From NCBI GenBank assembly GCA_964502615.1, contig CAZCXF010000001.1, positions 151,516 to 215,515 on the forward strand: 64,000 bases of DNA, given 5' to 3'. Source of the stretch: an uncultured Candidatus Saccharibacteria bacterium (GTDB lineage Bacteria; Patescibacteriota; Minisyncoccia; Phycocordibacterales; UBA9973). Within the stretch, counting starts at the first letter, position 1, and each line of letters opens with the position of its first letter. The translations under genes and the position numbers were made by a program. Shown one piece after another: positions 25,225 to 44,011 of this stretch. The notes beneath the pieces were generated by a model. It saw only the letters and a list, made by a program, of their open reading frames with translations. It did no database searches and was not told the DNA's origin.

Positions 25225-26736
25225 ATGAAAAAGCAAAAGGAGCAGGAAAAAATAGGGTTTTTTATAAAAGAGCTACGTGAGAGGCGTGGGCTCACCCAAG
25301 GTGCATTTGCAAAAGAATTAGGTACATCTCAGAGTGCTGTAGCACGTATGGAAAAAGGAGACCAAAATTTCAGCACTGAACTATTATCAAAAATCAGTGA
25401 TATTCTTGAACATCAAATAGTTTCAATAAATAATTCGATAGATTTTCAAATTGTCGGTGGTAAAAAATTGCACGGTAGTATTACAACAAACTTTTCTAAA
25501 AATGGTTCAGTTGGACTTCTTTGCGCATCCCTACTAAACAAAGGCAAAACTACTCTTCATGGAATTGCTCGTATTGAAGAAGTTTATAGAGTAATTGAAA
25601 TACTAGAGAGTATTGGGGTAAGCGTTAAATGGATTGATAGAAATTCTGTCCAGATAGTTCCACCTAAAAAGCTAACTCTTGATAAAATAAACGTAGAATC
25701 TGCTATAAAAACCCGCTCTGTGATTATGCTTATTGGGCCACTTATTCATTTACTTCCGACATTCTCTATCCCCCATGCATCTGGTTGCAAGCTTGGCAAA
25801 CGCACAATTTCAGCTCATACATATGCATTGGAAGATATTGGTGTAAAAATTAAAACAACAAACTCAACTTATGAGATAGGAGCTCAAAAATTGAATCCAG
25901 CAAATATTGTAATGTATGAAGCTGGTGACACTGCATGTGAAAATATTCTTACAGCTGTTGCTAAAGTACCTGGAAAAACAACTATATCATTTGCTAGTGG
26001 TAACTATATGGTTCAAGAGATCTGTTTCTTCATTGAAAAACTAGGGATAAAAATCGAAGGCATTGGTACAAGCACTATGATAGTACATGGGGTAAAAGAT
26101 ATAGATATGGATGTAGAATACTCAAATAGTGAAGACCCTATTGAATCCATGATGTTTATATCGGCAGCTATTGCCACAGATTCAGAGTTAACTATTACAA
26201 GATGTCCCATTGATTTCTTGTCGCTTGAACTTGAAAAACTAAAGAGAATGAATCTAAAATATAAAATACTAAAAAGTTATAAATCATATAATGGACGTAC
26301 TAACTTAATAGATATAAAAATAATGCCATCAAAACTAATCGCGCTTGATGATAAAATTCATGCTAACCCTTACCCTGGAATAAACATGGATAACCTTCCC
26401 TTCTTTGTACCTATTGCAATAAAAGCAAAAGGCCAAACTATGATACATGACTGGGTGTATGAGAACAGAGCAATATACTTTACAGAATTAAATAGGCTTG
26501 GAGCAGATGTTACCCTCGCTGATCCACACAGAGTATATATTCAAGGTGGTACACAATTGAAAGGAGCTCAGGTTGTTTGCCCTCCTGCCCTTCGTCCTGC
26601 GATGATCATATTGATTGGAATGCTTGGAGCACATGGAACTTCTGTATTACGTAACGTATATATGATCAGCCGAGGATATGAGGAAATAGCTGACAGACTT
26701 AACAAAATTGGTGCAGATATTACAATACTTAAGTAA
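25225..26736 (+). CDS. murA: HTH-XRE domain fused to UDP-N-acetylglucosamine 1-carboxyvinyltransferase (MurA)
   Basis: The first 75 aa or so, 'IKELRERRGLTQGAFAKELGTSQSAVARMEKGDQNFSTELLSKISDIL', form a classic HTH_3 domain. The rest aligns to MurA, including the catalytic Cys loop 'SGCKLGKRTISAH' and the C-terminal 'RNVYMISRGYEEIADRLNKIGADITILK'. Confidence 0.85.
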   Translation: MKKQKEQEKIGFFIKELRERRGLTQGAFAKELGTSQSAVARMEKGDQNFSTELLSKISDILEHQIVSINNSIDFQIVGGKKLHGSITTNFSKNGSVGLLCASLLNKGKTTLHGIARIEEVYRVIEILESIGVSVKWIDRNSVQIVPPKKLTLDKINVESAIKTRSVIMLIGPLIHLLPTFSIPHASGCKLGKRTISAHTYALEDIGVKIKTTNSTYEIGAQKLNPANIVMYEAGDTACENILTAVAKVPGKTTISFASGNYMVQEICFFIEKLGIKIEGIGTSTMIVHGVKDIDMDVEYSNSEDPIESMMFISAAIATDSELTITRCPIDFLSLELEKLKRMNLKYKILKSYKSYNGRTNLIDIKIMPSKLIALDDKIHANPYPGINMDNLPFFVPIAIKAKGQTMIHDWVYENRAIYFTELNRLGADVTLADPHRVYIQGGTQLKGAQVVCPPALRPAMIILIGMLGAHGTSVLRNVYMISRGYEEIADRLNKIGADITILK

Positions 26737-28104: not shown

Positions 28105-29541
28105 CTACTCCATTATAGTAATATCAGAAGCTTTTATATTGTTATCTATTTCATCAGAAAAATGATTTTTCCTAACTAGAAGAACAGTAATTATACCGAT
28201 AAGTATTATTAAAGCAAGGCCTATAATACTCATTGATTTATTCGATATTGAGGTTATAGAGTTTCCTGCACTTGCACTTATATTGTTCAAGTCAATAATA
28301 TTTGAATCTCTATTTTTCGAATTAAGATTTGCCTTTTCACTATAATCACTTACCATACTAGATTTCTTATAATTTGGATAAGTATTTAGTATCTTTCCAG
28401 TTATATCTTCTAGAGTTAAATATTTTACATCTTCGTAATCAAAACCAGTTAGCTTAGAAGAGATTTTTACCTTGCTATTAGGAAGTATTATAGTGCCAGT
28501 TGGTATATCGAAAGATTTTAAGTAACTCCTTAAAACCCAGTGAGATATGTCTAACTCATAATTTGATTTATTGTAAAGTTCGATATAAGGATCTGATGCA
28601 TCACCCACAGAACTAATAGATATTTCTGAAGATAGAACTTTGAGAATAAGTCTATCTGTGGCTTGCGGTTCCTTCTCAAATGGATTTGAATAGTAAGACA
28701 AGGAAAGAACATAATCCCCTGGATATAAATAAATATGTTCAAACTTCTTTTGTTCGCTCATAGAGAAACTTGTACCGTCGCCAAAATTCCAAGCAAATCT
28801 ACCAGAAACAATTGGTTCTTTTCTTAAACCCGTAGTGCGAAAATCAATTTCAAGGGGTAAACCAGCAAACGTAGTATTTTTAGCTAAAATATTTGTGGTT
28901 ATTTTAGTAACTTCAATTTCCTTTTTTGTATTTGATCTTATATCTGTGTTCGTAGAATTCCCTCCAGTACCTGTATCCACACCACCCCCTGAACCACCTC
29001 CGCCATTTCCTCCACCACCCCCACCACTTGTTTGATTCTGAACACCTGGTGTAGGAGTTGCACCTCCCCATGAACTATTTATTTTTTGGAGAGAACTACC
29101 ATCTCCAGCTCCACCTTGACTTGAAGTAAAAGATACCTGGCTTACTATATTTAAATCTGGATCTTTTAAAGCAATAGTTTCTCCGTCGTTACTTAATCCC
29201 GTCCAACTACTATCAAAAAGTAGTCCTGAGTAATTTGGCCAATCAACTCGAAACTTTGCTGAATCTTGAGTTATAACTGCATAGCCACCTGCAGGAATAC
29301 TTGAATTACCTTGTGGAACAAGTGAGTGCTTAGTATTGTCAGAGAAGAAATACCAATGCGAAAAATCAGTGCTTTCATTACCATTGTTGTAAACCTCTAC
29401 CCATTCGCGACCAGTATCAGTACCGTCGAGATCATACATTATTTCTGTAATCTCAAAAGAAGCGCTTGCAAGATGAGACCAAGATAAGAATAAAAATATA
29501 GTTATTAATATAATTTTTGAAATTCTTCCAAAAACTTTCAT
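28105..29541 (-). CDS. Secreted lamin-tail-domain (LTD) protein with a Gly-rich linker and a C-terminal TM anchor
   Basis: Signal peptide, then 'ITEIMYDLDGTDTGREWVEVYNNGNESTDFSHWYF', the LTD signature. A poly-Gly stretch follows and a hydrophobic helix sits near the C-terminus. Confidence 0.65.
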   Translation of the reverse strand: MKVFGRISKIILITIFLFLSWSHLASASFEITEIMYDLDGTDTGREWVEVYNNGNESTDFSHWYFFSDNTKHSLVPQGNSSIPAGGYAVITQDSAKFRVDWPNYSGLLFDSSWTGLSNDGETIALKDPDLNIVSQVSFTSSQGGAGDGSSLQKINSSWGGATPTPGVQNQTSGGGGGGNGGGGSGGGVDTGTGGNSTNTDIRSNTKKEIEVTKITTNILAKNTTFAGLPLEIDFRTTGLRKEPIVSGRFAWNFGDGTSFSMSEQKKFEHIYLYPGDYVLSLSYYSNPFEKEPQATDRLILKVLSSEISISSVGDASDPYIELYNKSNYELDISHWVLRSYLKSFDIPTGTIILPNSKVKISSKLTGFDYEDVKYLTLEDITGKILNTYPNYKKSSMVSDYSEKANLNSKNRDSNIIDLNNISASAGNSITSISNKSMSIIGLALIILIGIITVLLVRKNHFSDEIDNNIKASDITIME

Positions 29542-29545
29542 AAAA

Positions 29546-31939
29546 TTATTCTTCTAATATTTTTCTTAAAACTTCTTCGGGAACCTCTTTTTTAGGCTGA
29601 GGTTTCTGCCAAGAATTATTATTTGCAGGAATATTATTAGGAACTACCTGATCAGTATTTTGTGGTTGTGATGAATTTACTGGCTTAGATTCAATTTTTT
29701 GAATTATGGGAACCTCTATTTTAGGTGGCATTGGTACCTCTGGTTTCGGGGGAATCTGTACTTCAACTTTTGGAGGAACAGGGATTAGTGGTTCTACTTT
29801 TGTCTCAACCTTTGGTTCTATTTTTGGCTCTTCTACAACTATTTTCGATTCTTTTATAGGTTCAGGAATAGTATTACTGATAGAAATAGACTCTGGAGCC
29901 CTTACTTCAGGTATTTTTATAACCGGTTGTTCAACTTTTGGTTTAATCTCTTCTAGAATAGGTTTTACTTCCACTGGTTTAACTTCAACTTTAGTAACCT
30001 CTGCGGGTTTTGTTTGAGGTGGAGCAACTTTGGCCAATAAATCTTTAAGTGAAGCTTTTTTCTCTTCAGAAGCTTCTTTGGTTGGTACAGATACAGTTGG
30101 AATATTAGTTTCTGGTTTTTTTAAAGTTGAAAGTGATACCGGAGTAGGAGTTTCTTTTTTTATTTCAACGACAGGTGGATTAGTAGGTTGTTTTTGAGAT
30201 CTATCCCCGCCAATTTTTTCTAGCAATCCTTTCAGTAGTGGAGATGGACCAGAATGTTTCTTTTCAGTTTGATTATTATTTCTCTGAAAATTATTGGTGT
30301 TATTGTTTTTGTTAAATGGTGGTCGTCCTTGCCCAGACTGGTTTTGGTTGGGAGTAAATCCGTTTTTATTAGGGGCCTTATTACCACCAGCATCAGTAAA
30401 CTCAATACCTAGCATTGCAAGAGGTGAAGTAGAATTCTTTTCTTCTTGACGTGCAGAGCGAGAAGCTACGAATCCAGTCTGTGGCTTTAACTCACCACTT
30501 TTAATTTTAAACATACAGTCTTTACAATACACTGGCCTACCCTCTTTAGGCTCAAAAGGGACCATTATAGACTTACCACAATTTGAACAATCTGCTTTAT
30601 ATTTTGCTTCACCTTCAACAGTCTGAAGTGTTCCACTCCATTTATTTATTTCGGCTTCAACTTCTTCACGTGGACGAGCATAGAGTTTCCTTGATGACTC
30701 TATTATTTTTTCTTTGACTCCTGCTGAAGGATCAATCTTAAGAGGTGGTAATGTACTTGCAGAAAAAGGTCTACTTGTAACACCATCAATCATGAGCTTT
30801 AGATATATGTGGTAGTTTGGAAGATTAACTAGATCCTGAGCGGTAAATTCTGGTTCAAATTCTTTTTCAATAAATTCTGCATCATCAGCACCAACTCGAA
30901 AAATTATCATAGTTCCAACGTTTCCGAAAACTGCATCTCTTACGGCTGTACCATTTTCATTTGAAAGCTGAGCCGTGTATTGGTGAGCAATTATAAGATT
31001 TAGGCGGTATTTACGAGCTTCGGAAAGAATATTTGCAAAAGAATCAGTTGCAAAGTTTTGGAACTCATCCACATATAGGTAGAAATCTTTACGTTCATTT
31101 TCTGGTATACGCACACGTTCCATCGCAGCAAGCTGGATCTTGGTAATAATCATACCTCCAAGAAGCGCAGAGTTGTCTTCACCTACACGTCCTTTTGAAA
31201 CATTTACAAGGAAAATCTTCCCTTCGTTCATTATCTTGAAAATATCAATTGTAGATTTAGATTGACCAACTACGTTACGGATGATTGAAGTTGATAGGAA
31301 TTGTCCAACTTTGTTTTGAATCGGGGCAATTGCTTCATTTCTAAACTGTTCACGCCATTGTTCGTACTCATGAACCCAAAAGGCTTTGACCACGGGGTCT
31401 TTTAAGTTGCCAATAATCATTTGACGATAGTCTTTGTCTACGAGAAGTCTTGGAATACCTAGGAGTGTTGTACCTGGAGTATCAAGAAGTGCCAAGATTG
31501 CGTTATTTAGAATGTATTCCATACGAGAACTCCAAGCATTAGCCCAAATCTTGGTAAATATTCCCATAAGTCCAGAAGCGACTAAGTGTTTGTATTTTGG
31601 ATCATCTAGTGCAATAACATTGAAACCAACATTGAAATCAATATCTGCTGGGTTAAAGTATATTACGTCTTTGGCACGATGGTCAGGAATAAGGTGAAGA
31701 ATTTCTTCAACCAACTCTCCGTGTGGATCAACCACACAAACACCTTCCCCATTATTTATATTTTGAACTATTAGATTAGATAGGAGTACAGACTTACCGG
31801 TACCAGATTTACCGAGCACATACATATGTTGCCTTCTGTCTTTCCTCTTGATACCAAATATATTATTGGTACTGCGAAAATTGGTCTTAGCGAAGTAAGT
31901 TATATCTCGATTGTGTGGAATTTGGTTGTTCGGATCCAT
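29546..31939 (-). CDS. TraD/VirD4-like (FtsK/HerA superfamily) soluble P-loop ATPase with an internal Zn-ribbon and a long Pro/Lys/Glu-rich disordered C-terminal tail
   Basis: Walker A 'VLGKSGTGKS', Walker B 'FYLYVDEFQNFAT', coupling-protein-like 'SEARKYRLNLIIAHQYTAQL...GNVGTMIIFRVG'. There is a CxxC-x19-CxxC ribbon 'CSNCGKSIMVPFEPKEGRPVYCKDCMF' and about 300 aa of low-complexity PK/E-rich tail. It is a paralog of 38563..40041. Confidence 0.7.
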   Translation of the reverse strand: MDPNNQIPHNRDITYFAKTNFRSTNNIFGIKRKDRRQHMYVLGKSGTGKSVLLSNLIVQNINNGEGVCVVDPHGELVEEILHLIPDHRAKDVIYFNPADIDFNVGFNVIALDDPKYKHLVASGLMGIFTKIWANAWSSRMEYILNNAILALLDTPGTTLLGIPRLLVDKDYRQMIIGNLKDPVVKAFWVHEYEQWREQFRNEAIAPIQNKVGQFLSTSIIRNVVGQSKSTIDIFKIMNEGKIFLVNVSKGRVGEDNSALLGGMIITKIQLAAMERVRIPENERKDFYLYVDEFQNFATDSFANILSEARKYRLNLIIAHQYTAQLSNENGTAVRDAVFGNVGTMIIFRVGADDAEFIEKEFEPEFTAQDLVNLPNYHIYLKLMIDGVTSRPFSASTLPPLKIDPSAGVKEKIIESSRKLYARPREEVEAEINKWSGTLQTVEGEAKYKADCSNCGKSIMVPFEPKEGRPVYCKDCMFKIKSGELKPQTGFVASRSARQEEKNSTSPLAMLGIEFTDAGGNKAPNKNGFTPNQNQSGQGRPPFNKNNNTNNFQRNNNQTEKKHSGPSPLLKGLLEKIGGDRSQKQPTNPPVVEIKKETPTPVSLSTLKKPETNIPTVSVPTKEASEEKKASLKDLLAKVAPPQTKPAEVTKVEVKPVEVKPILEEIKPKVEQPVIKIPEVRAPESISISNTIPEPIKESKIVVEEPKIEPKVETKVEPLIPVPPKVEVQIPPKPEVPMPPKIEVPIIQKIESKPVNSSQPQNTDQVVPNNIPANNNSWQKPQPKKEVPEEVLRKILEE

Positions 31940-31982: not shown

Positions 31983-32561
31983 CTATTTACTATTGTGAGT
32001 AAGTCTATATTCTACAATCTGGCTAAATAAAATACCTGTTGAAAGTATAAGAGCATAGAACATTATAGAAACTGGATATGAGGTAGGAATAGATTTAAGC
32101 ATCCCTAGTATAAATGCCAATAACCAAGAACTTAGTGATATAGCCCCAAAAGCAAATGATAGTTTTCTAAGCTTTACGTATTTATGACGTGTATTGATAT
32201 CAGTGAAATTTATCTTTCTAAGAGCTGGGTGAACAACCCTTTGAAACATATAACCATTTACGATAATAACTGTTACTACAGTCATCTTTATTAAGAATTT
32301 AACTGAGTGTGAGTATTTTTCTGGATCAGAAAGAAAAAGAGTAATCCCACTTATAAAAATAAAAAATAAGCTAAACCAGATGACCTTAGATAAAATACTC
32401 AGTGTTTTATCTTCGTGAATATTTATCTTTTTATCTTTTATATAAATATTGAATAGAATATCAGATACTAAAGCAGCACCCATGCCTACAATCACAGAAA
32501 AGACATGAGCTATGATAGATATATATTTATACTCATTAAAAAATGCTATTGTTTCTTCCAT
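31983..32561 (-). CDS. Hypothetical polytopic membrane protein (4-5 TM)
   Basis: Hydrophobicity pattern. It lies between the Cys-rich paralogs and ATPase-1 with gaps of only 27 and 43 nt. Confidence 0.5.
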   Translation of the reverse strand: MEETIAFFNEYKYISIIAHVFSVIVGMGAALVSDILFNIYIKDKKINIHEDKTLSILSKVIWFSLFFIFISGITLFLSDPEKYSHSVKFLIKMTVVTVIIVNGYMFQRVVHPALRKINFTDINTRHKYVKLRKLSFAFGAISLSSWLLAFILGMLKSIPTSYPVSIMFYALILSTGILFSQIVEYRLTHNSK

Positions 32562-32588: not shown

Positions 32589-34283
32589 TTAATTCACTTC
32601 CTGTTGATAGCAGGATTCGCAATAAACTATATCGGGTTGATTCGGTTCGTAACTAGTTTGAAACTCATTTTTACAACCTTCTTTCATACATGAACGATTG
32701 TAAAGTTTTGGTTTATTTATAAATTTATAACGGTCTAAAAACCTACAGTTATGACATTTATGAGGCAGAGGTAACCCAATCCGTTTATAAAATTGCAATT
32801 CAATCGGAACTATTCTATATGCTTTTTTACAATTTACGCATGCAATAATTTCTTTTGTAATATCTTCTGAGACTTCAGTAATTGAATCTGGCAAATCGTT
32901 ACCGCTTATAGTAGTCTGAAATTCACGTGCATTTGGCTCGCGCCACAAGAAACCTTTCTGCAATGCTTCTTCTTTGCTTATTGGGACATAATCTTGTGCC
33001 AAACTTTCGTTGTATGCCAAGGGTGAAAAGGAAGATGGGAAGAAGTCCCCATATGTATATACTTTTCCTTGCTCATCGACATATGGCATATCTTTCATAT
33101 GCTGTACTATCTTTGGAACAAGCGCTTCGTATTCTTCCTTTGAATACTGTTTATTTAAAATGCAGTATTGTTTTTTCTTTAGACTAACACAACCAAATGA
33201 ATTTGATGCACCAAAACAATAACCACAGTATTCTAGATCTCGGACATTCCCAAAACAATTGAAACAGTATTTTAATCCATAAGCTCCATCTCCACATGTC
33301 ATGCATTCGTAGGCATTTTCTATTCCCATAAAAAGTTGGCAGGAATCATAGGAGTTAGCGGCTTTCAAAACACTTATCTGTACATAACGTAAGTTCTCAG
33401 CATTCTCTACAGAAAAAGAGTCTCTTACATTTTTTGAATCACTAACCCTATCCCCTGTACAATTTAAATTTCTTGAACCATGATAGTATTTTACTGGGAA
33501 TTTTTGCCAAAAATCTGGAATAGTATCATTTAATTGTTTAATTGATTCATAGGAACTTAGATTTATTTCAGATATTCTTTTCTCATATTCTTCTCTAGAG
33601 AGCGGCTCATTAAAAAAATAATAAGATTTACCACGTAGATTTACGCAACCAAAACAATTTGTACATCCACGAAGCCCTTTGCTAAACCATACATCCACAC
33701 AACTTTCACAATCAACAGAAAACATAGTTTGGTAAGATTTGTACACCATTACACATTCATAGCATAGCTCGTCATCTATCATTTCATGGGAATCAAATGA
33801 ATTTTTTACATTAGTTACCTTTACTAAATATCCAGAATCTTCTATAAAATCTGCATCAAAACATAGATATGCATTCTTTAGCCTCCCTGCCTCATTGCAA
33901 TAGTCTGAATTTATCATAAATCCAGCAGAAGACTTTGCCATAATAGGTACACGGTTGAGTAGTGATTGGAATTGTTTGAAGAATGGTACTGAGAAATCGT
34001 ATTCTACCCCGTAATCCAATGCTTCCCATTCGTCACCATACCAATAAGTGGTTTCATATGTTTGCATAGGTGCTTCGGCTGGAATACCTGAAAAGGAGTC
34101 ATTACCAGTATGAGCATCTTTTCTTCGAAATAAATTGCGTTCATTTCTCCAAGTCAACCGACGAACCATACGACACTCCGGACACCAAGTAGGTACTGGA
34201 ACCTTCATCTTTTCGTAGAAAGAAAAATCATCCGGTTCGATATTGAAATCTTTTTTACAATTTTGGCAGTTTTTTGTTTCCAT
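32589..34283 (-). CDS. Cysteine-rich multi-zinc-ribbon protein, paralog C (564 aa)
   Basis: N-terminal CxxC-x22-CxxC ribbon ('NCQNCKKDFNIEPDDFSFYEKMKVPVPTWCPECR'), internal CxxCxGC modules and C-terminal ribbons ('CVNCKKAYRIVPIELQFYKRIGLPLPHKCHNCR', '...VYCESCYQQEVN'). The 2nd ribbon is lost relative to paralogs A and B. Confidence 0.8.
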   Translation of the reverse strand: METKNCQNCKKDFNIEPDDFSFYEKMKVPVPTWCPECRMVRRLTWRNERNLFRRKDAHTGNDSFSGIPAEAPMQTYETTYWYGDEWEALDYGVEYDFSVPFFKQFQSLLNRVPIMAKSSAGFMINSDYCNEAGRLKNAYLCFDADFIEDSGYLVKVTNVKNSFDSHEMIDDELCYECVMVYKSYQTMFSVDCESCVDVWFSKGLRGCTNCFGCVNLRGKSYYFFNEPLSREEYEKRISEINLSSYESIKQLNDTIPDFWQKFPVKYYHGSRNLNCTGDRVSDSKNVRDSFSVENAENLRYVQISVLKAANSYDSCQLFMGIENAYECMTCGDGAYGLKYCFNCFGNVRDLEYCGYCFGASNSFGCVSLKKKQYCILNKQYSKEEYEALVPKIVQHMKDMPYVDEQGKVYTYGDFFPSSFSPLAYNESLAQDYVPISKEEALQKGFLWREPNAREFQTTISGNDLPDSITEVSEDITKEIIACVNCKKAYRIVPIELQFYKRIGLPLPHKCHNCRFLDRYKFINKPKLYNRSCMKEGCKNEFQTSYEPNQPDIVYCESCYQQEVN

Positions 34284-34284
34284 A

Positions 34285-35979
34285 TTAATTTACTTCTTTT
34301 AAATAGCAAGACTCACAATAAATAATCTCTGGCCGACCTGGGGCGTAACTTGTATCAAATTCATTATGACAGCCACCCTTCATACAATTCCTATGCCAGA
34401 GTTTGAAAGGATTTCTTCTAGCAACACGTCTAGAATGTCGACAATGGAAACATCTTCTAGGTATTGGGATTTCCATTTTCCTATATAGTGTAAGTTCATC
34501 TCCGACAATTTTATAATTCCTATTACAATCAATACATTTTAAAACCTCACTTGTTATAGAGTCTGGGACATCAAAAATACTCTCTGGAATATTTTCTGGC
34601 ACTAACGTCTCGCGACCGACTGTACGCTGTATATTATCTTGCCATTTATAGCCTAATGAAATTGCCTCTTCTTTATTTAGTGGGAAATGTTCCATAGCTA
34701 TAGTTTCATTGTACCCAAAAGGAGCAATCTCAACTGGGTAAAATTCTCCATATTTATACACTAATCCACGTTGATCTATATAAGGCATTGTATTCATATG
34801 CTCTATAATCTTAGGCAATATTTCTTCATATTCTTCTTTGGTATATTCTTTATTTAGGATGCAATACTTTGCATTGCGTAAAGAAACACATCCAAAAATA
34901 TTTTTTGAAGAATGGCAATGTTGAGAATATTGAATGTTTTGGCTCTTTACAGAAAAAACACCAAAAAAATTATTAAATGAGTGATCGCACACTACAGAAT
35001 CGTAACATTCTTCAATCTCGCCAGACATGGTTATATCATAAGAACCTTTGTTGTCATTTGAATACTCAGCATATTTACAATTCTCTAATTTTTTTACTAA
35101 AAAAGAATTCTTAGTGTTTTTACTATAAGAAACGATATCTCCAGTACAGTCAAAATTCTGCTTCATCCAAGCATATCTTCTAGGATAATGCAGAATAAAT
35201 TCATCATATTCTTTTTGAGCTTTTTCTACTCCACTGAAAGTGTCTAATCTATATTCCTTCAAAATATTTTCATATTCCTCTTTTTCGTATTGTTTATTCC
35301 TAAAATGGTATCTTTTGTTTCTAAGACCAGTACACATGAAGCAATCGGAGCAGTTCTGACAATCGTAAAGAAATTGTGAGTTTATACAAGATCTACTAAA
35401 AAATGAGTGCTTAAGCATGTAGCCATGCGAACAATTTATACATTCATATAAATACTCAGCTTCTGCCATATTTATCATCCCGTCTATAATATTTTTTCCA
35501 GCAAGAATATAGAAGCTATACATTATGTTCTCTATATGCCAACCTGAAAAAACCATATAACAGTTCTTAGCAAACCATATGTCGTGAGTATATTCACAAT
35601 TTAAACTAGCTATTCCATCGTCATTTACAACCGCCATCTGTGGAACTCTATAAAGTAATTCTTTGAATTGTTCAAAAAATGGTTTTGAAAAATCATAGTC
35701 CTGTGCATAATCTTTTGGGTCCCATTTGTCACTCCACCAGCATTTATTGCAATAAACTATAACTCCAGAATCAGGAGAATAAATTGATACGACAGACTTT
35801 TGGCAAAGTTCACAAGTGCGTGAATAAAGAGATAAACTGTTGCGCCAAGCATGACGCCTCTGACTTCGACATTCTGGGCAAAAGGTAGGCGCTGGAACTT
35901 TTATCTTTCCATAGAAAGAAAAATCATCCGGTTCAATGGTAAAATTATTTTTACAATTTTGGCAGTTTCGGGTTTCCAT
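34285..35979 (-). CDS. Cysteine-rich multi-zinc-ribbon protein, paralog B (564 aa)
   Basis: Same architecture and collinear with A and C, separated from C by 1 nt and from A by 2 nt. It has the second ribbon 'CELCQKSVVSIYSPDSGVIVYCNKCWW'. Confidence 0.8.
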   Translation of the reverse strand: METRNCQNCKNNFTIEPDDFSFYGKIKVPAPTFCPECRSQRRHAWRNSLSLYSRTCELCQKSVVSIYSPDSGVIVYCNKCWWSDKWDPKDYAQDYDFSKPFFEQFKELLYRVPQMAVVNDDGIASLNCEYTHDIWFAKNCYMVFSGWHIENIMYSFYILAGKNIIDGMINMAEAEYLYECINCSHGYMLKHSFFSRSCINSQFLYDCQNCSDCFMCTGLRNKRYHFRNKQYEKEEYENILKEYRLDTFSGVEKAQKEYDEFILHYPRRYAWMKQNFDCTGDIVSYSKNTKNSFLVKKLENCKYAEYSNDNKGSYDITMSGEIEECYDSVVCDHSFNNFFGVFSVKSQNIQYSQHCHSSKNIFGCVSLRNAKYCILNKEYTKEEYEEILPKIIEHMNTMPYIDQRGLVYKYGEFYPVEIAPFGYNETIAMEHFPLNKEEAISLGYKWQDNIQRTVGRETLVPENIPESIFDVPDSITSEVLKCIDCNRNYKIVGDELTLYRKMEIPIPRRCFHCRHSRRVARRNPFKLWHRNCMKGGCHNEFDTSYAPGRPEIIYCESCYLKEVN

Positions 35980-35981
35980 GA

Positions 35982-37682
35982 TTAATTAAACTCTTGTTGG
36001 TAGCATTTTTCACAATAAACTATTTCAGGTCTATCTTTGGAAAAAGCAGTAGTAATATTACTATTACATTTAGCACAGTTCCTTGACCATAAGTGTATTG
36101 GATTGAGGCGAGAAAAATGAGCTTTTTGCCTACACTGCGGACAGTTATGTGGAACTGGGAGATTCATTTTTTTTAATAAATTAAGTTCAAGTGGTCCAAT
36201 TTTATATCCACGACCACATTTTTCACATTTTATAATTTCACTAAGAATAGATTCAGTAATTTGGTTAATGGTATTAAATAGTTCTGTGGCATTTATTGTT
36301 GTTTTATATTCCAATTGATCAGCTTCATGCCACATATATCCCATAGAAAGGGCTTCTTCTTTTGTTTTTGGGAAAAACTTCATTACATCAGATTCGTTAT
36401 AGCCAAATAAATTAAATTTAATAGGATAAAATTCGCCATAACTCCACACACGACCCAACTCATCTACATAAGGATTTTTTTTCATATCTTCAACAATTTG
36501 AACTTTGAGTTTCTCGTATTCTTCCTTTGAATATTCTTTATTCAAAATACAGTAGGATTTGCGTTTTAGATTTACGCATCCGAAGACATTTTTACAAGCA
36601 GAGCTCCACATAGAATATTCAATATTCATACTATCTGGGTAGCAACTATTAGAAAATTTTATATTACTTGCTTTCTCGCCAGTCGAGTGAGCCTCATATA
36701 TGAGGTCAACATTTGCACCCCACCCAGAGTAATCGTAGCAATCACGAGCCGTAGGAACTGTCACGAACTGAACATATCTAGAGTCTTCCACACTAGTACA
36801 AAGGTATAAATCTTGTGAATTTTTTGATTCAAATACATACTCGCCAGTAATATTCAAATTCATTGAATTGCCGGTGTAAGATCGATAAGGTTTTGTGAGC
36901 CAAAATGCGCGAGAACTTTCAATTAAGCCTTGTAGAGTATTCCATGAATTCAGGCCTAATTCTTTTACTTTAAGATCATAATCTTCCTTTGAATACTTTT
37001 CATTAAAAATACAATATGATTCTCCTCGTAAATTTGCACATCCTATACAATTTGTACAATTGTAACAATTACGAGAAAACCAAACATCTGTACATGCATC
37101 ACATTCTTCTGAAAAAAAAGTTTGGTAACATTTATTAATCCCTAGTGAGTTATAGCAAAGTTCCGATTCGCGAGCTCTCATACAATCAGAGGAATCTTTC
37201 AGTTGTAAAATAATTGAGGAGTGAGTAACGTTTTCAGCGTAATCTGCCCAAAAAGTAAGATAACAATTTCTTAACCAAGATGCTCCATTGCAGTATTCAG
37301 AATTTATCATTGAAGGACCGAGTGTTTCTGTCGCAACCCATGGTGTCTTTCTTGAAAGTTCATAAAGTTGTTCGAAAAAGTTTCTATTAGGATCATAATC
37401 CATAGCATACTCAGTACCATCCCAATCATCTGCCCACCAACATTCTGAACAGTAAACTATAATAGGGTTATCTTTATGATACATAGAGAGTGTTCTTTTT
37501 TTACATTTATCACAATCACGAAAATATACCGTCCAAACAGTTTTTGAAGCATTCCTCCGAATAATTCTACATTCTGGACACCATGTAGGATGAGGCACAT
37601 TGATTTTTTGATAGTAGAGTTTATCCCTCTCATCAATAATAAAATCTGTTTTGCAATTTTGGCAGTTTCTAGTTTCGTTCAT
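35982..37682 (-). CDS. Cysteine-rich multi-zinc-ribbon protein, paralog A (566 aa)
   Basis: Same architecture. It includes a CxxCxxCxxC module 'CYNCTNCIGCANLRGESYCIFNEKYSKEDYD' and the repeat 'GCVNLKRKSYCILNKEYSKEEYE'. It overlaps the upstream nucleotidyltransferase gene by 14 nt. Confidence 0.8.
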   Translation of the reverse strand: MNETRNCQNCKTDFIIDERDKLYYQKINVPHPTWCPECRIIRRNASKTVWTVYFRDCDKCKKRTLSMYHKDNPIIVYCSECWWADDWDGTEYAMDYDPNRNFFEQLYELSRKTPWVATETLGPSMINSEYCNGASWLRNCYLTFWADYAENVTHSSIILQLKDSSDCMRARESELCYNSLGINKCYQTFFSEECDACTDVWFSRNCYNCTNCIGCANLRGESYCIFNEKYSKEDYDLKVKELGLNSWNTLQGLIESSRAFWLTKPYRSYTGNSMNLNITGEYVFESKNSQDLYLCTSVEDSRYVQFVTVPTARDCYDYSGWGANVDLIYEAHSTGEKASNIKFSNSCYPDSMNIEYSMWSSACKNVFGCVNLKRKSYCILNKEYSKEEYEKLKVQIVEDMKKNPYVDELGRVWSYGEFYPIKFNLFGYNESDVMKFFPKTKEEALSMGYMWHEADQLEYKTTINATELFNTINQITESILSEIIKCEKCGRGYKIGPLELNLLKKMNLPVPHNCPQCRQKAHFSRLNPIHLWSRNCAKCNSNITTAFSKDRPEIVYCEKCYQQEFN

Positions 37683-38118
37683 TTTTATTCAGAATAGACG
37701 ATTTAAATTTCTCTGGTTTATAAGCTTCTCCTGTTTTAATTTCAATTTTAGGAATAATCTTCTTTTTTATCGCTTTACTTATACTATCAAATAGAGCTTG
37801 CTGGTCATAGCCTAAAAATATTAAATCTGGTTTAACTTCTTTTAAAATATTGTAAGTATCTTCGTTGGGATCACCAAGATAAGCAATATCAATATCTGGA
37901 GTATCCATAATAGATTTAATTCTAAAAGCTTCATCGTTTACTGGCATTTTCCCTTTTAGTTTTAAAACTACTTCATCCCTGGCAACTATAGCAACAAGCC
38001 TATCTGCGTATTTTTTAGCTTCACGTATAAAAGCAAGGTGACCTTCGTGAATCCCATCAAAAGTACCAAATATTGTTACTGTTTTATAATTCATTACTGT
38101 ATTTCTTGAGCCATCCAT
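37669..38118 (-). CDS. Cytidylyltransferase-like (HxGH) nucleotidyltransferase, RibL/TagD/HldE-domain-II-like
   Basis: 'TIFGTFDGIHEGHLAFIREAKKYADRLVAIVARDEVVLKLKG', the (T/H)xGH nucleotidyltransferase motif. The 149-aa size fits. Confidence 0.65.
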   Translation of the reverse strand: MDGSRNTVMNYKTVTIFGTFDGIHEGHLAFIREAKKYADRLVAIVARDEVVLKLKGKMPVNDEAFRIKSIMDTPDIDIAYLGDPNEDTYNILKEVKPDLIFLGYDQQALFDSISKAIKKKIIPKIEIKTGEAYKPEKFKSSILNKNERN

Positions 38119-38399
38119 TCTTTATAATCATGATTCATCCGACGGATATCAACTCCCGCAATAAGGGGCACACTGTAAGTATGATTGTCATTTATAAGTT
38201 GGGATACTGGATCGAGCTTTGATTCGAGTGTAGTCACTAATAACATTGCTTGGGTTACACATTGCATTCCACCCTCCCAGTTATAGCAAGATTTGATGGG
38301 CCAAAAATCCACACAGGCACCTATTTTGGCTTGTATTATAAGTGATCCGAGCTTCTCGGCTTCATCCATATCCTTACATGTTGTATATATAAAAACCAT
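38094..38399 (-). CDS. cutA: CutA1 divalent-cation-tolerance family protein
   Basis: 'KIGACVDFWPIKSCYNWEGGMQ...HTYSVPLIAGVDIRRMNHDYKEWM' matches the CutA fold signature. It overlaps the downstream nucleotidyltransferase gene by 25 nt. Confidence 0.75.
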   Translation of the reverse strand: MVFIYTTCKDMDEAEKLGSLIIQAKIGACVDFWPIKSCYNWEGGMQCVTQAMLLVTTLESKLDPVSQLINDNHTYSVPLIAGVDIRRMNHDYKEWMAQEIQ

Positions 38400-38562: not shown

Positions 38563-40041
38563 TTATATTAATGGTTCACTAGCTTTTTCTTCAACAACTT
38601 TTTTCTCTTCTTTGTCGCCATAAACAGAATTTTTACCACCAGTAATAGCAGCTTTTTCTTGAGCTGAGCGAATAATTGTAGACTCTTCTTCTGCAATTAG
38701 GCGCTGTGCTTCCCCTGCAGGAATAGCATAAGTATTTCGAGACGCTTCAATAACACGATCACGATAAGATGGATGAGTCGCAGGTAGAACGCGAAGAGTT
38801 TCAGCAGAGAATGGATCATATGATTCCCCGTCGATTGTCATCTTCACATAAAATTCCCCTACTCCTAAGTTGATCATATCTTTCACATCAAATATTGGAG
38901 AAAATTCTGGCTTGAGTTTTACAGCATCATCACCTCCCACGCGGAAAGAAATAATAGAACCTACGTTACCGAGCACTGCTGCTTCAACTTTTGCTGGAAT
39001 CTGCCCTACGTACTGGTGAGCCATTGTTAAGTTGATTGCATACTTACGAGCCTCGGAAAGCAAGTTTTCAAATGTATCTGTTACTACGTTTTGGAACTCA
39101 TCCACATATAAATAAAAATCTTTGCGGAGATGTGCTTCCATTTTGGCACGAGCCATTCCAGCTTGTTTAATCTTAGTCAAAAACATCGCTCCAAAGAAAG
39201 ATGAATTCTCTTCTCCGATTTTTCCTTTTGATAGATTAATCAAAAGAATTTTTTGATCATTCATGATTTGCTCTATATCAATTTTATTTTCTTTTTGTCC
39301 GAAAATATTTCGAAGCATTGGATCAGATAGAAATTGACCGAGCTTGTTAACAAGCGGGATGATAGCATCAGTATCAAATTTCTCAGACCAGTCAGCAAAT
39401 TCGATAGCCCAGAATCTTTTAACCATGTCGTCCTCGATATATTCCACCACCTTCTGACGATAGTTACGATCAGTAAGCATAGATATCATTCCTCGCATAG
39501 TAGCGTAAGGATAGTCTAGAAGCGCAAGTGTGGTAAAACGAAAAACGTGCTCAAGACGAGGAGTCCAGTTTGCTCCGAATTGTTTACGGAGAACTTCAAT
39601 CAGACCTTGGGTAAGCTGATGTTTAAATGTTGGGTCAACATTTGCGAGAGGATTGAAAGATGATGGAAAATCTATATCTCCAGGATCAATAATACAGACA
39701 TCGTTTATACGATTCTCAGGGATAAAACCTAAAATATCATCAATAAATTCCCCGTGAGGATCTATGACGCAAACTCCGTGTCCATATGCAATATCTTGGC
39801 GAACCATGAGCTCTTGGAGTTTTGATTTACCTACCCCAGACTTACCGATAATATACAAATGTCTTCTACGATCTACACGCTTTATACCGAAAACGAACTT
39901 CTTTTCTTCAAGAGCTGCAACGTAATTTGTTCTACCAATAAAAGAAACCTCATTAGGATCAACTTGTCCAAGTACAGGTAAATCCGGAGGCGGCGGAGCA
40001 TATTTAATTATTTGAATCTTGTTGGGCTTGTTGAGTGCCAT
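38563..40041 (-). CDS. TraD/VirD4-like (FtsK/HerA superfamily) soluble P-loop ATPase, paralog of 29546..31939 without the Zn-ribbon and tail
   Basis: Shared N-terminal 'FGIKRVDRRRHLYIIGKSGVGKS', 'VCVIDPHGE', 'FYLYVDEFQNVVT' and 'SEARKYAINLTMAHQYVGQI...GNVGSIISFRVG'. Confidence 0.7.
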   Translation of the reverse strand: MALNKPNKIQIIKYAPPPPDLPVLGQVDPNEVSFIGRTNYVAALEEKKFVFGIKRVDRRRHLYIIGKSGVGKSKLQELMVRQDIAYGHGVCVIDPHGEFIDDILGFIPENRINDVCIIDPGDIDFPSSFNPLANVDPTFKHQLTQGLIEVLRKQFGANWTPRLEHVFRFTTLALLDYPYATMRGMISMLTDRNYRQKVVEYIEDDMVKRFWAIEFADWSEKFDTDAIIPLVNKLGQFLSDPMLRNIFGQKENKIDIEQIMNDQKILLINLSKGKIGEENSSFFGAMFLTKIKQAGMARAKMEAHLRKDFYLYVDEFQNVVTDTFENLLSEARKYAINLTMAHQYVGQIPAKVEAAVLGNVGSIISFRVGGDDAVKLKPEFSPIFDVKDMINLGVGEFYVKMTIDGESYDPFSAETLRVLPATHPSYRDRVIEASRNTYAIPAGEAQRLIAEEESTIIRSAQEKAAITGGKNSVYGDKEEKKVVEEKASEPLI

Positions 40042-40089: not shown

Positions 40090-41370
40090 ATGGCAAAAGC
40101 TAAAGAATCTATCTTAAAAGAAGGTGAAGAATACATTGAGAAGCTCGGTCCAGGTCTGATAACGGGTGCGGCAGATGACGACCCTTCTGGAATTGCTACA
40201 TATTCACAAACTGGTGCTCAGTATGGCACTACTCTCCTTTGGCTCGCTGCATGGACTCTGCCACTTATGGCAATAGTTCAAGAAATGTGTGGACGTATTG
40301 CACTTGTTACTGGGCAAGGACTTGCTTCAAATATAAAAAGAGTTTATTCAAAGAAGGTTTTATACTTTTGTACTATTCTTTTATTTATCGCAAATACTTT
40401 AAACATCGGAGCAGACCTTGGAGCTATTGCAAAATCTATCCAACTCATCACGCCTTCTGCTTCTTTTGTTTTTACTATTGTAGTCGTTGGACTCATATGC
40501 TTATTACTACAAATATACATTCCATATAAAAAATACGCTCGAGTACTAAAGTGGCTAGTGATAAGTTTATTTGCATATATTGCTACTGGACTAATAATTC
40601 ATATGGACTGGTCACAGCTTATGTATGATGGACTGATACCGAGCATTGAATTCTCAAAGACTCAGATACTTTTAATAACAGCAATTTTAGGAACAACAAT
40701 CTCACCTTACCTTTTCTTTTGGGAAACATCACAAGAAGTTGAGGAGCAGATTGCTGAAGGTCTCGTTACTGATGAATCTCGTCTAGGTACAACAAAAAAA
40801 GAAATTAAAAAAATGCGCATAGATATTTGGAGTGGAATGATATTTTCAAATCTTGTAATGTTCTTCATTATCGCAGTTTGTGCCAACACATTATTCACTC
40901 ATGGAATTACAAATATAAATACAGCAAGCGATGCTGCTCTTGCTCTTGCACCGTTTGCTGGCAAATGGGCAACTTATTTATTTGCTATTGGTATTATAGG
41001 GACTGGAATGCTAGCAATACCTATACTCGCGGGATCTACCTCTTATGCTATATCTGAGAGTTTTGGCTGGAAGGAAGGTCTATATCGTAAACTATCTGAA
41101 GCAAAAGCTTTCTACGCGATTATAAGTGTTTCTATTGCTATTGGGATACTTATAAACTTCATTGGTATAGACCCTATAAAAGCCTTAATATACTCCGCTA
41201 TTGCAAATGGAATAGTGGCTCCTGTCATTATTATCTTTATTGTTCACATAAGTGGAAGCAAGAAAATCATGGGCCACTTCAAAAACTCAAGACCGATAAA
41301 TATAATAGGCTGGATAATAACAATACTCATGAGTATTACAGCTCTAGCTGCTATCTATTCCCTATTTTAG
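40090..41370 (+). CDS. mntH: NRAMP-family divalent metal (Mn2+/Fe2+) transporter
   Basis: 'GPGLITGAADDDPSGIATYSQTGAQYGTTLLW' NRAMP consensus and about 11 TM helices. Confidence 0.85.
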   Translation: MAKAKESILKEGEEYIEKLGPGLITGAADDDPSGIATYSQTGAQYGTTLLWLAAWTLPLMAIVQEMCGRIALVTGQGLASNIKRVYSKKVLYFCTILLFIANTLNIGADLGAIAKSIQLITPSASFVFTIVVVGLICLLLQIYIPYKKYARVLKWLVISLFAYIATGLIIHMDWSQLMYDGLIPSIEFSKTQILLITAILGTTISPYLFFWETSQEVEEQIAEGLVTDESRLGTTKKEIKKMRIDIWSGMIFSNLVMFFIIAVCANTLFTHGITNINTASDAALALAPFAGKWATYLFAIGIIGTGMLAIPILAGSTSYAISESFGWKEGLYRKLSEAKAFYAIISVSIAIGILINFIGIDPIKALIYSAIANGIVAPVIIIFIVHISGSKKIMGHFKNSRPINIIGWIITILMSITALAAIYSLF

Positions 41371-43486: not shown

Positions 43487-44011
43487 TTACCCAAAAAGTG
43501 ATTTAATTTTTTCCCATGGTACAGATACGAGAAGCGTGCCGAGAAAAACCATAGCAAGTCCAATTATTGCTTGAACTGTAATCCCCTCTGCCAAGACAAC
43601 GGTTGCAAATATAGCAGTAAGAACAACAGAGAGCTTATCTATTACAGTTACAGTTACCGTGGGACCACCAGCAAGTGCTTGGTAGAAAAATATCCAAGAG
43701 AGTGCCCCACCAAGACCAGAAAGTATTACAAAAAGCCATTGCTTTTGAGAAAGAGAATGGATTGCTGTTATTGAAAGTTTACCAAATGAAAGTGCTGCAA
43801 TACATACAACTACTGCCATAACAATCCCTCTTATAGCAGTGAGCAAATTAGCATCGACACCTTTAAGTCCGAGCTTTGCAAAAATAGTGCCCATACTTGC
43901 CATTACAGCCCCTAGTAACGCGTAAATAATATACATGATTCCATTATACCAAAAGAAACCCCTTTCGGGGTCTCTTTTGCTATAATAACTAATCTTCTTT
44001 TTTTGGAGCAA
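43487..44011 (-). CDS. Single-EamA-domain (DMT superfamily) small membrane transporter-like protein
   Basis: 4 TM helices with 'ALSWIFFYQAL...' typical of EamA. The start is probably an internal Met (near 43936), which removes the overlap with the upstream gene. Confidence 0.55.
   Translation of the reverse strand: MLQKKKISYYSKRDPERGFFWYNGIMYIIYALLGAVMASMGTIFAKLGLKGVDANLLTAIRGIVMAVVVCIAALSFGKLSITAIHSLSQKQWLFVILSGLGGALSWIFFYQALAGGPTVTVTVIDKLSVVLTAIFATVVLAEGITVQAIIGLAMVFLGTLLVSVPWEKIKSLFG

Follow-up and report, generated by a model that had tools for sequence, protein, structure and literature searches.

Among the accessory proteins of VirD4/TraD-type coupling ATPases, DotN is a zinc protein, and TraM binds the tail of TraD. 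Coupling-protein ATPases work with dedicated adaptor subunits, as in the Legionella DotL complex (PMC7280309). Type IV secretion system (T4SS) genes are widespread in Patescibacteria, and their genomes contain about two VirD4 homologues each, of which only 148 of 5,713 are located near virB4 (PMC12102498). Two finger families are also relevant to the locus described here, zf_Tbcl (PF13451) and zf_Tbcl_2 (PF23477), the latter being equivalent to TIGR04272, the CxxC-x17-CxxC domain. Zinc was found by ICP-MS to be bound in two small M. mazei proteins with this domain (PMC12704099).

We have analysed a window of 64,000 nucleotides from an uncultured member of the Patescibacteria which contains an array of three genes encoding Cys-rich proteins. 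The anatomy of these proteins, the age of the paralogues and the selection acting on them, the size and distribution of the family and its reciprocal gene linkage are established in this study. The principal new finding concerns genome organisation: arrays of paralogues are located beside, and often between, the genes of two soluble VirD4/TraD-like ATPases.

Three paralogues and their domain plan

Positions 32589–37682 of the window are exactly occupied by three minus-strand open reading frames, encoding paralogues A (35982..37682, 566 aa), B (34285..35979, 564 aa) and C (32589..34283, 564 aa), with gaps of 2 and 1 bp between them. Since the coordinates fill the interval exactly, the length of 565 aa ascribed to each protein in the earlier note has to be corrected; its description of three related Cys-rich proteins with modular fingers was confirmed by the ORF listing, the alignment and the Cys map. 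The proteins are ~40% identical in pairs over their full length, contain 5.5–6.0% cysteine and are acidic (pI 5.3–6.3). Hydropathy showed neither a hydrophobic N-terminus nor a TM-like segment in A, B or C; they are soluble cytoplasmic proteins and, as already claimed, have no signal peptide. All four terminal Cys4 fingers are present in A and B, and central repeat 1 of A also contains a cluster of six Cys. In C, finger 2 is devoid of cysteines and central repeat 2 contains an additional Cys cluster.

The plan shared by the three proteins is pseudo-symmetric: an N-terminal double Cys4 finger, two central repeats, an aromatic-rich linker and a C-terminal double finger. In B, the N-terminal double finger (residues 1–95; 35695..35979, minus strand, like all features given below) consists of a zf_Tbcl-like CxxC-x24-CxxC finger and a zf_Tbcl_2-like CxxC-x17-CxxC finger followed by a WWxDxW motif. 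Central repeat 1 (residues 96–245; 35245..35694) is composed of 12-residue units and ends with the cluster C198...C207xxC210xxC213xxC216 and a 'SKEEYE' helix. Central repeat 2 (residues 246–400; 34780..35244) is its Cys-poor copy which retains FGC364, YC373ILNKxY and the helix. The linker domain (residues 401–476; 34552..34779), with the conserved elements PYxDxxGxxYxYGEFFP...YNE...GYxW, is the most confidently modelled part of B (pLDDT 92–98). The C-terminal double finger (residues 477–564; 34288..34551) begins with a strongly basic finger (pI 10.1, net charge +8).

Profile-profile comparison of the N-terminal (1–82) and C-terminal (479–560) double fingers gave a probability of 99.8% (E 1.6e-28), which bears out the proposal that the terminal ribbons are internal repeats of each other, and fingers 1 and 2 proved to be unrelated by the same method (probability 5.6%). 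Similarly, hhalign matched central repeat 1 (95–245) to repeat 2 (265–400) with a probability of 99.9% (E 2.5e-33). The two short 'C..C.GC..L' modules seen previously in each protein are thus indeed duplicated, but each is only the tail of a repeat of ~150 residues. The repeats are statistically significant, and the shared motifs are not a low-complexity coincidence. The autocorrelation of conservation at lag 12 was 0.55 in repeat 1 and 0.49 in repeat 2, matched by 0 of 2000 permutations in either case, and the AF2 model of C shows strands at intervals of 12 and then of 6 residues. The central repeats of A, B and C are best explained as solenoid-like and built from 12-residue units. The AF2 models of B (pLDDT 87.3, pTM 0.87) and C (pLDDT 85.2, pTM 0.88) are least confident at the Cys cluster of repeat 1 (pLDDT ~70).

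The spacing of finger 1 is CxxC-x24-CxxC (C6, C9, C34, C37) and not x22 as first reported, and finger 3 is spaced in the same way (C482xxC485-x24-C510xxC513). Finger 2 of A and B has the spacing CxxC-x17-CxxC exactly, as has the last finger of A, whereas the last finger of B and C reads Cx4C-x17-CxxC. The CxxCxxCxxC motif noticed earlier in A and B was found at residues 206–215 and 207–216, respectively, in the Cys map. Fingers 1, 3 and 4 are conserved in 87–100% of 260 diverse family members, and conserved arginines (R38, R41, R42, R514, R518 and R530) follow the second knuckle. Structural zinc is the most probable metal bound by the cysteines, with four to six putative sites in A and B and a different set in C.

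The loss of all cysteines from the second ribbon of C, pointed out before, was confirmed, although it is not peculiar to this gene: they are absent from all four positions in 118 of 118 C-type orthologues, and finger-2 loss was found in ~43% of the 260 diverse members. The remaining segment (C residues 51–95; 33999..34133), a zinc-less 'fossil' of finger 2, is nevertheless predicted to fold, with strands and a helix as in B (pLDDT 90–93 in the AF2 model), and its dN/dS is 0.013. In central repeat 2, the additional cluster specific to the C lineage (C residues 327–365; 33189..33305) comprises three CxxC pairs together with C362 and C365; Cys frequencies at these positions are 0.81–0.98 in C-type orthologues and low in the A and B types.

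Relation to known families

The family of A, B and C is very large (thousands of sequence clusters), undescribed and present almost only in Patescibacteria MAGs, mostly of the Paceibacteria type. Literature searches found neither a description nor a functional characterisation of it. PF13451, which has two CxxC knuckles forming one Cys4 site, aligns to fingers 1 and 3, where the same elements are found, with scores of 12.2 (C), 14.8 (B) and 18.9 bits (A), below the gathering cut-off of 24 bits. PF23477 aligns to fingers 2 and 4 with 11.1 (B) and 16.3 bits (A), below its cut-off of 27 bits, and A has the spacing that defines PF23477/TIGR04272 in both of these fingers, B in finger 2 only. Precomputed matches to PF13451 exist in a few orthologues (P0240, P0261, P0268, P0272 and P0285) and to PF23477 in many A-type orthologues; the precomputed Pfam annotation contained these two finger families only. 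As the scores lie below the cut-offs while a few orthologues do match, we regard the window proteins as divergent zf_Tbcl relatives and not as scored members. Both Pfam families are single small fingers, whereas the family proteins are long and multi-fingered, and residues 96–476 (~380 residues, about two thirds of each protein) matched no Pfam model.

The LIM consensus is C-x2-C-x16-23-H-x2-C-x2-C-x2-C-x16-21-C-x2-(C/H/D), with fingers 2 residues apart. The family resembles LIM domains in having two consecutive treble-clef-type fingers per module. A PDB search with the family profile yielded weak LIM matches only (CRP1, CRP2, PINCH and MLP; E 0.0036–0.23), which are not significant given the search space, including the LIM-like match of the C-terminal double finger at E 0.0036; a single sequence gave no PDB match. 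In contrast to the LIM consensus, finger 1 has x24 spacing, the fingers are separated by ~18 residues and a His ligand is absent. The beetle antifreeze helix is another case of 12-residue units, forming Cys-rich beta-solenoid coils. Scores against beta-solenoids with short coils (curli CsgA and the ryegrass ice-binding protein) were all below significance, and unlike these proteins the family is cytoplasmic, its cysteines are clustered and each repeat ends in an alpha-helix.

NCBIfam yielded no match for A, B or C, and no meaningful hits for the family came from the PADLOC defence models or PHROGs. As tblastn against phage and plasmid collections produced no match, we reject the idea that the family is cargo of known mobile elements.

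Age of the paralogues and selection

Each of A, B and C has its own set of orthologues with 55–93% identity in many genomes (56–91% for paralogue A), and adjacent family copies elsewhere are 28–60% identical, with no recent duplicates among the 90 pairs. These two observations rule out a recent local tandem triplication, and the arrays, which contain 1–10 deeply diverged paralogues, are assemblies of ancient ones. The triplication that gave rise to A, B and C is thus ancient. The dN/dS values were 0.032 for B and 0.037 for C at a dS of 1.2–2.3, which is near saturation; at the scale that can be tested, diversifying selection is rejected. The earlier note had proposed tandem triplication leading to sub-functionalisation; specialisation fits the purifying selection and long retention, but a local tandem event is contradicted by the separate orthologue sets. 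Even a close relative whose flanks are identical has an array of different order and content. An obligate A-B-C hetero-complex seems unlikely, because related genomes carry different subsets at the locus.

Linkage to VirD4/TraD-like ATPases

The array is located between two genes for soluble VirD4/TraD-like ATPases, a linkage which does not appear in the earlier note. The short ATPase (38563..40041, minus strand, 492 aa) is encoded upstream in the same strand run and the long one (29546..31939, minus strand, 797 aa) downstream; the window intergenic gaps are 1–43 bp. The short ATPase matches the Pfam families DUF87, T4SS-DNA_transf, TrwB_AAD_bind and TraG-D_C, and its NCBIfam matches to TraD and VirD4-like models are all sub-threshold. 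The long ATPase has a low-complexity tail and a CxxC-x17-CxxC finger (residues 446–478; 30506..30604; PF23477, 50.4 bits; TIGR04272, 53 bits, above the cut-off of 36) of the same type as family fingers 2 and 4. Motifs of the form CxxC-x15-26-CxxC are found in the window only in the three paralogues, the long ATPase and UvrA. The flexible tails of both ATPases terminate in short conserved peptide motifs, ...AEPLI in the short ATPase and ...EVPEEVLRKILEE in the long one; 22 of 24 short ATPases have AEP(L/M)I, and 12 of 16 long ones have EVPE(D/E)VLRK(I/V)LE.

The maximum 19-residue hydropathy of the ATPases was 1.2, so they have no TM segment or N-terminal membrane anchor. Their best scores with curated T4CP models were 40–51 bits against cut-offs of 250–650, and in comparison with canonical T4CPs only the nucleotide-binding and TraG-D_C regions match. 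They correspond to the 'orphan' coupling-protein homologues left unexplained by the 2025 survey (PMC12102498).

The ATPase family was the commonest neighbour of the finger family, at 30 of 85 family-anchored loci, the next family reaching 13. The ATPase gene lay 0–2 ORFs from a family gene and shared its strand in 46 of 48 cases, and frequently there was one ATPase on each side. Linkage was found at 26 of 80 family-anchored loci versus 2–3.5 expected (P ~1e-16 or lower). Reciprocally, the family was present at 57 of 80 ATPase-anchored loci, and at 27 of the 32 that were flanked by 4 kb or more in both directions. The finger proteins are thus encoded with VirD4/TraD-type ATPases in a reciprocal, strand-consistent adjacency. 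Within the DNA examined around each locus, 55 of 85 family-anchored loci had no ATPase, and some copies occur in other contexts, such as beside mraY-ftsW-murG (L001). The ATPase-anchored loci come from a rather narrow lineage whose housekeeping neighbours show synteny as well (DnaJ at 30, CutA1 at 31 and Nramp at 28 of 81 loci), so that inherited gene order may account for some of the linkage.

CutA1 and Nramp genes are also found in the neighbourhood of the paralogues in the window. Between C and the long ATPase, a hydrophobic 192-aa membrane protein with a weak DUF2214 match is encoded (31983..32561, minus strand). Genes of the same length were found, by comparing length and position, just upstream of the long ATPase on the same strand (L084) and just upstream of a family gene on the opposite strand (L082), and it is uncertain whether this protein is part of the system.

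Discussion

We infer zinc binding, physical interaction and an adaptor role for the finger proteins, which in our reading are interchangeable adaptor or specificity subunits of the ATPase pair; we assign this a probability of roughly 0.4. The arrays consist of non-identical paralogues, co-oriented with the two soluble ATPases and in most cases bracketed by them. According to the proposal, the finger proteins would dock on these ATPases and present a nucleic acid or a protein as substrate, and different paralogues would confer different specificities. The finger type common to the long ATPase, the conserved C-terminal motifs of the ATPases and the basic first C-terminal finger count in favour of this role; the incomplete linkage and the missing membrane anchor of ATPases scoring far below T4CP cut-offs count against it. 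The arrangement is like that of Legionella DotL with DotM, DotN, IcmSW and LvgA and of the F-plasmid TraD tail with TraM, in that accessory genes lie beside a VirD4/TraD-type ATPase, and the window ATPases also carry a TraG-D_C region and conserved tail motifs. In the DotL and TraD systems the accessory proteins work on the ATPase, as they would here; in contrast to those systems the window ATPases are soluble and do not adjoin a T4SS. No sequence or fold similarity to known T4CP adaptors (DotM, DotN, IcmS/W, LvgA or TraM) was found. A more far-reaching and doubtful proposal is that the arrays and the two ATPases together constitute an unrecognised Patescibacteria-specific cytoplasmic machine, with the ATPase pair as its motor and a genome-specific set of finger subunits picking the target, which might be scavenged nucleic acids or host-bound proteins.

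The same adjacency to coupling-protein-like ATPases would be expected if the finger proteins were a repertoire of cargo or effectors recognised by the ATPases and exported into a host cell, for example via the Patescibacteria type IV secretion system. The variable copy number (0–10), the shuffling of array content between related genomes, the basic C-terminal region and the wide occurrence of T4SS genes in Patescibacteria (PMC12102498) agree with export, but the very strong purifying selection and the high orthologue identity (60–93%) across many genomes differ from typical fast-evolving effectors, and metal-stabilised domains at both ends would probably resist unfolding for type IV export. 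Moreover, the ATPases lack a membrane anchor, such homologues are rarely near virB4 (PMC12102498) and no T4SS component is among the annotated recurrent neighbour families, so we consider export unlikely.

Nucleic-acid-binding proteins often contain treble-clef and CxxC-x17-CxxC fingers, and the family could consist of independent regulators or DNA/RNA-handling factors whose position beside the ATPases is inherited order in a housekeeping neighbourhood. The arginines behind the second knuckle, the basic first C-terminal finger, the recurrence of dnaK, dnaJ, cysS, recR and dnaB nearby and the copies away from any ATPase are in agreement with this. The whole proteins are acidic, however, Pfam and NCBIfam gave no DNA- or RNA-binding family beyond generic fingers, and the ATPase link, which has at least double the frequency of any other neighbour whichever family serves as anchor, survives rearrangements of order and side; such independence is improbable to a similar degree as export.

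Three closely spaced cysteines and a remote one are the classical ligands of a 4Fe-4S cluster, and C198 with C210xxC213xxC216 in central repeat 1, whose conservation is at least 0.89 in each of the three orthologue groups and which lie exactly where AF2 is least confident, could hold a [4Fe-4S] cluster in a redox protein; Fe-S sites had been raised as a possibility in the earlier note. This is quite improbable: Pfam and NCBIfam showed no Fe-S family, neither the ferredoxin-type CxxCxxCxxxCP motif nor a Fer4 match is found in A, B or C, where CxxCxxCxxC lacks the CxxxCP ending, most cysteines are missing from the homologous position of repeat 2 in A and B, and no redox partner genes recur nearby. 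A role in buffering or storage of zinc or another divalent cation, to which the 22–49 cysteines per protein and the CutA1 and Nramp genes near the family in the window and at about one third of ATPase-anchored loci might point, is very improbable, since cysteine makes up just ~6% of residues and is arranged in discrete structural fingers, the long non-Cys regions are strongly conserved and CutA1 is near the family at only 6 of 85 diverse loci.

The adaptor role thus remains our preferred reading. The family has had no name and its central fold no solved relative, and some tiny Patescibacteria genomes maintain up to ten 1.7-kb copies. The linkage offers the thousands of 'orphan' coupling-protein homologues unplaced by the 2025 survey (PMC12102498) a concrete partner that can be tested, together with a well-defined panel of proteins and peptide motifs for binding and structural work. 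A cytoplasmic machine of the kind outlined above, if it exists, would explain why about two such homologues per genome are kept away from secretion systems. If the link is functional, it would represent a new lineage-specific module in organisms whose biology is mostly inferred from sequence.

Architecture of the paralogues

Three ORFs on the minus strand, A (35982-37682, 566 aa), B (34285-35979, 564 aa) and C (32589-34283, 564 aa), together account exactly for the region 32589-37682; they are separated by spacers of 2 and 1 bp and are about 40% identical in alignments covering their full length. The proteins contain 31-34 cysteines each, are acidic overall (pI 5.3-6.3) and show no hydrophobic N-terminus or membrane-like segment. 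The window represents ordinary chromosomal DNA; it comes from a small-genome bacterium, has a low GC content (~35%) and carries genes such as lepA, murJ, leuS, uvrA, uvrB, alr and tRNA genes. In the leucyl-tRNA synthetase (6169-9027, 952 aa), a NUDIX domain match (residues 413-508) follows an editing-domain match (220-370), and an EPSP-synthase/MurA-type enzyme (25225-26736) carries an N-terminal helix-turn-helix (HTH_3), a fusion also found at the edge of L084, the locus most closely related to the window. The ORFs 43989-47198 (1069 aa) and 16591-18171 (526 aa) gave no Pfam match at E ≤1e-5.

The earlier note described A, B and C as three diverged proteins with internal repeats, an observation that was confirmed. 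Profile-profile comparison showed that residues 1-82 are homologous to residues 479-560 (probability 99.8%, E 1.6e-28) and residues 95-245 to residues 265-400 (probability 99.9%, E 2.5e-33); fingers 1 and 2 proved unrelated. The proteins follow a five-part plan: a double finger (fingers 1 and 2), central repeat 1, central repeat 2, a conserved aromatic-rich linker (residues 401-476) and a second double finger (fingers 3 and 4). Within the first double finger, CxxC-x24-CxxC precedes CxxC-x17-CxxC; the x22 spacing previously given for the former motif was wrong. The short 'C..C.GC..L...EEYE' module noted before does exist, but as the tail of a repeat of ~150 residues and not as a free-standing unit.

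Conservation has a sharp 12-residue period in both central repeats (lag-12 autocorrelation 0.55 and 0.49; neither value was reached in 2000 permutations). The AlphaFold2 models of B (pLDDT 87.3, pTM 0.87) and C (pLDDT 85.2, pTM 0.88) exhibit confidence above 90 in the fingers and the linker and about 70 in the Cys-rich, solenoid-like parts, and short strands at every 12, later every 6, residues are predicted in C. No resembling solved structure was found: the best Foldseek E value against the PDB was 0.49, with left-handed beta-helix enzymes at the top, and likeness to viral models was confined to 40-residue finger matches. Pfam matches were sub-threshold and likewise confined to the fingers (PF13451 for finger 1, PF23477 for fingers 2 and 4), and the C-terminal double finger gave weak family-profile matches to the LIM domain (E 0.0036). 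The CxxC-x17-CxxC domain of two small M. mazei proteins was shown to bind zinc (PMC12704099).

The loss of every finger-2 cysteine noted in paralogue C was borne out; each of 118 C-type orthologues examined (118 of 118) likewise lacks all four. Among 260 diverse members of the family (A, B, C and their relatives), ~43% keep at most one of the finger-2 cysteines, whereas ~99% have intact fingers 1 and 4 and ~87% an intact finger 3. The Cys-less segment of C showed the strongest constraint measured (dN/dS 0.013) and is modelled with pLDDT 90-93 and with the strands and helix seen in B; the C lineage has its own cluster of ~8 cysteines in central repeat 2. Taken together, these data show that the finger was lost long ago and that its loss is fixed and compensated, and not a case of decay.

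Distribution and age of the family

Each paralogue retrieved thousands of relatives, all of ~550-600 aa and nearly all unnamed or 'hypothetical', the labelled ones belonging to Paceibacteria-type candidate groups (Nomura-, Azam-, Giovannoni-, Lipton-, Staskawicz-, Jorgensen- and Niyogibacteria). An exhaustive profile search yielded 4,660 clusters (50% identity) at E ≤0.001 and 2,036 at E ≤1e-30, and at least 573 loci in species-representative genomes encode a relative. There were no family matches in phage and plasmid collections, and literature searches found no description of the family. It is thus undescribed, as opposed to already characterised: a large, old family whose soluble multi-finger proteins have a new central architecture and which occurs almost only in Patescibacteria MAGs. 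A 267-kb contig labelled Burkholderiales (L039) carries four family copies and both ATPases described below, and a 1.8-kb contig labelled Bacteroidales (L030) carries a family member; mis-binning or mislabelling is likely in these cases, horizontal transfer being a conceivable alternative.

The matches of A, B and C fall into three separate sets, each showing 55-93% identity with the query that retrieved it and ~40% with the other two (margins of 13-27 points). The 260 full-length members, from 165 loci, form 83 clusters at 50% identity. Adjacent gene pairs (n=90) are 28-60% identical (median 40.5%) and share a cluster in only three cases, so that the arrays are old paralogue collections; these identities and the separate orthologue sets rule out fresh duplication. 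The dN/dS comparison suggested in the earlier note, run for B and C against L084, gave 0.032 and 0.037, respectively, which are approximate values because dS is 1.2-2.3. The non-identical paralogue arrays are maintained under purifying selection. Copy number in other genomes ranges from 1 to 10. In L084 (3991-9079) the flanking genes are identical to those of the window, and the array is permuted and its content partly replaced: instead of A-B-C, the order is a C-type gene (92%), a gene just 49.5% identical to A and a B-type gene (88%). An additional 207-aa gene on the opposite strand follows the L084 array.

Genomic neighbourhood

The main interest lies outside the region treated in the earlier note, in the linkage to ATPases. 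A same-strand run comprises a short soluble VirD4/TraD-like ATPase (38563-40041, minus strand, 492 aa), CutA1 (38094-38399), a cytidylyltransferase-like gene overlapping A by 14 bp, A, B and C, a small membrane protein, a long VirD4/TraD-like ATPase with a CxxC-x17-CxxC finger (29546-31939, minus strand, 797 aa) and a lamin-tail-domain (LTD)/PKD protein (28105-29541). Between the cytidylyltransferase-like gene and the long ATPase the gaps are 1-43 bp, and 4 bp separate the ATPase from the LTD/PKD gene. The LTD/PKD gene directly follows the long ATPase also in L084 and in another comparison locus, L082, and may therefore belong to the same transcription unit.

Clustering the neighbours at 85 family loci (80 from distinct species-representative genomes) showed that the VirD4-like ATPase family is the commonest (30/85), followed by DnaK and DnaJ (13/85 each). 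The ATPase is encoded 0-2 ORFs from the array, often closer than 100 bp, and shares its strand in 46 of 48 cases. About half of the ATPase-bearing loci have a short (~490 aa) as well as a long (~700-870 aa) ATPase no more than two ORFs from the array; in most of them one ATPase is found on each side, the order being variable. An ATPase was observed in 26 of 80 family-anchored loci against 2-3.5 expected by chance if a Patescibacteria genome encodes about two of these ATPases (PMC12102498); P is ~1e-16 or lower under independence. Reciprocally, 57 of 80 metagenome loci picked solely by similarity to the short ATPase contained the family, twice as frequently as any other neighbour, although this sample represents a rather narrow lineage, where synteny with CutA1, Nramp and DnaJ is likewise seen in about a third of the loci. 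Where at least 4 kb was available on both sides (n=32), the family was present in 27 loci and within 2.5 kb in 23. The paralogue arrays and the two soluble VirD4-like ATPases are reciprocally linked.

DnaJ occurs in 30 of 81 ATPase-anchored loci, and dnaK/dnaJ genes accompany family and ATPase in, for example, L043 (766-2697), L044 (2511-3638) and L129 (7385-8503); this recurrence could stem from conservation of gene order or from a link with chaperones. CutA1, a divalent-cation tolerance protein, and the metal transporter Nramp (40090-41370) stand beside the zinc-finger gene cluster in the window. CutA1 was found in just 6 of 85 diverse family loci, for which the list of neighbour families did not include Nramp.

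Conservation of the short ATPase is extreme (80% mean column identity in the sampled genomes, dN/dS 0.014). Neither ATPase has a membrane anchor or reached any curated coupling-protein model, and 14 of 16 long ATPases carry the finger. In the window and loci L007-L084, 22 of 24 short ATPases terminate in the peptide ...AEP(L/M)I after a variable low-complexity tail, and 12 of 16 long ATPases terminate in ...EVPE(D/E)VLRK(I/V)LE(E) after such a tail; the window has ...AEPLI (38566-38577) and ...EVPEEVLRKILEE (29549-29587), respectively. These peptides look like docking motifs. A survey of type IV secretion in Patescibacteria, published in 2025, listed 5,713 VirD4 homologues in 2,918 genomes, just 148 of them near virB4 (PMC12102498).

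Discussion

The earlier interpretation, sub-functionalisation toward different substrates or partners with multiple Zn or possibly Fe-S sites, is supported in part only. We favour, with a probability of roughly 0.4, the reading that the multi-finger proteins may act as exchangeable adaptor or specificity subunits of the ATPase pair. In the Legionella DotL complex, a coupling-protein ATPase works with dedicated adaptor subunits (PMC7280309). The family proteins, in contrast, have no homology to those adaptors, and the proposal is therefore one of working alike and not of membership.

Export of the multi-finger proteins as cargo seems improbable, and it is similarly doubtful that they are stand-alone nucleic-acid binders whose adjacency to the ATPases is inherited gene order. 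Fe-S proteins, suggested by C198 and the CxxCxxC motif in repeat 1, are a distinctly improbable reading. Metal buffering is very improbable.

That the finger-protein arrays and ATPases form a new lineage-specific machine as a whole module is possible, if rather unlikely. In the favoured reading, the cysteines of A, B and C would bind structural zinc, and the proteins would dock on the ATPases, perhaps via the conserved tail peptides or the common finger type.
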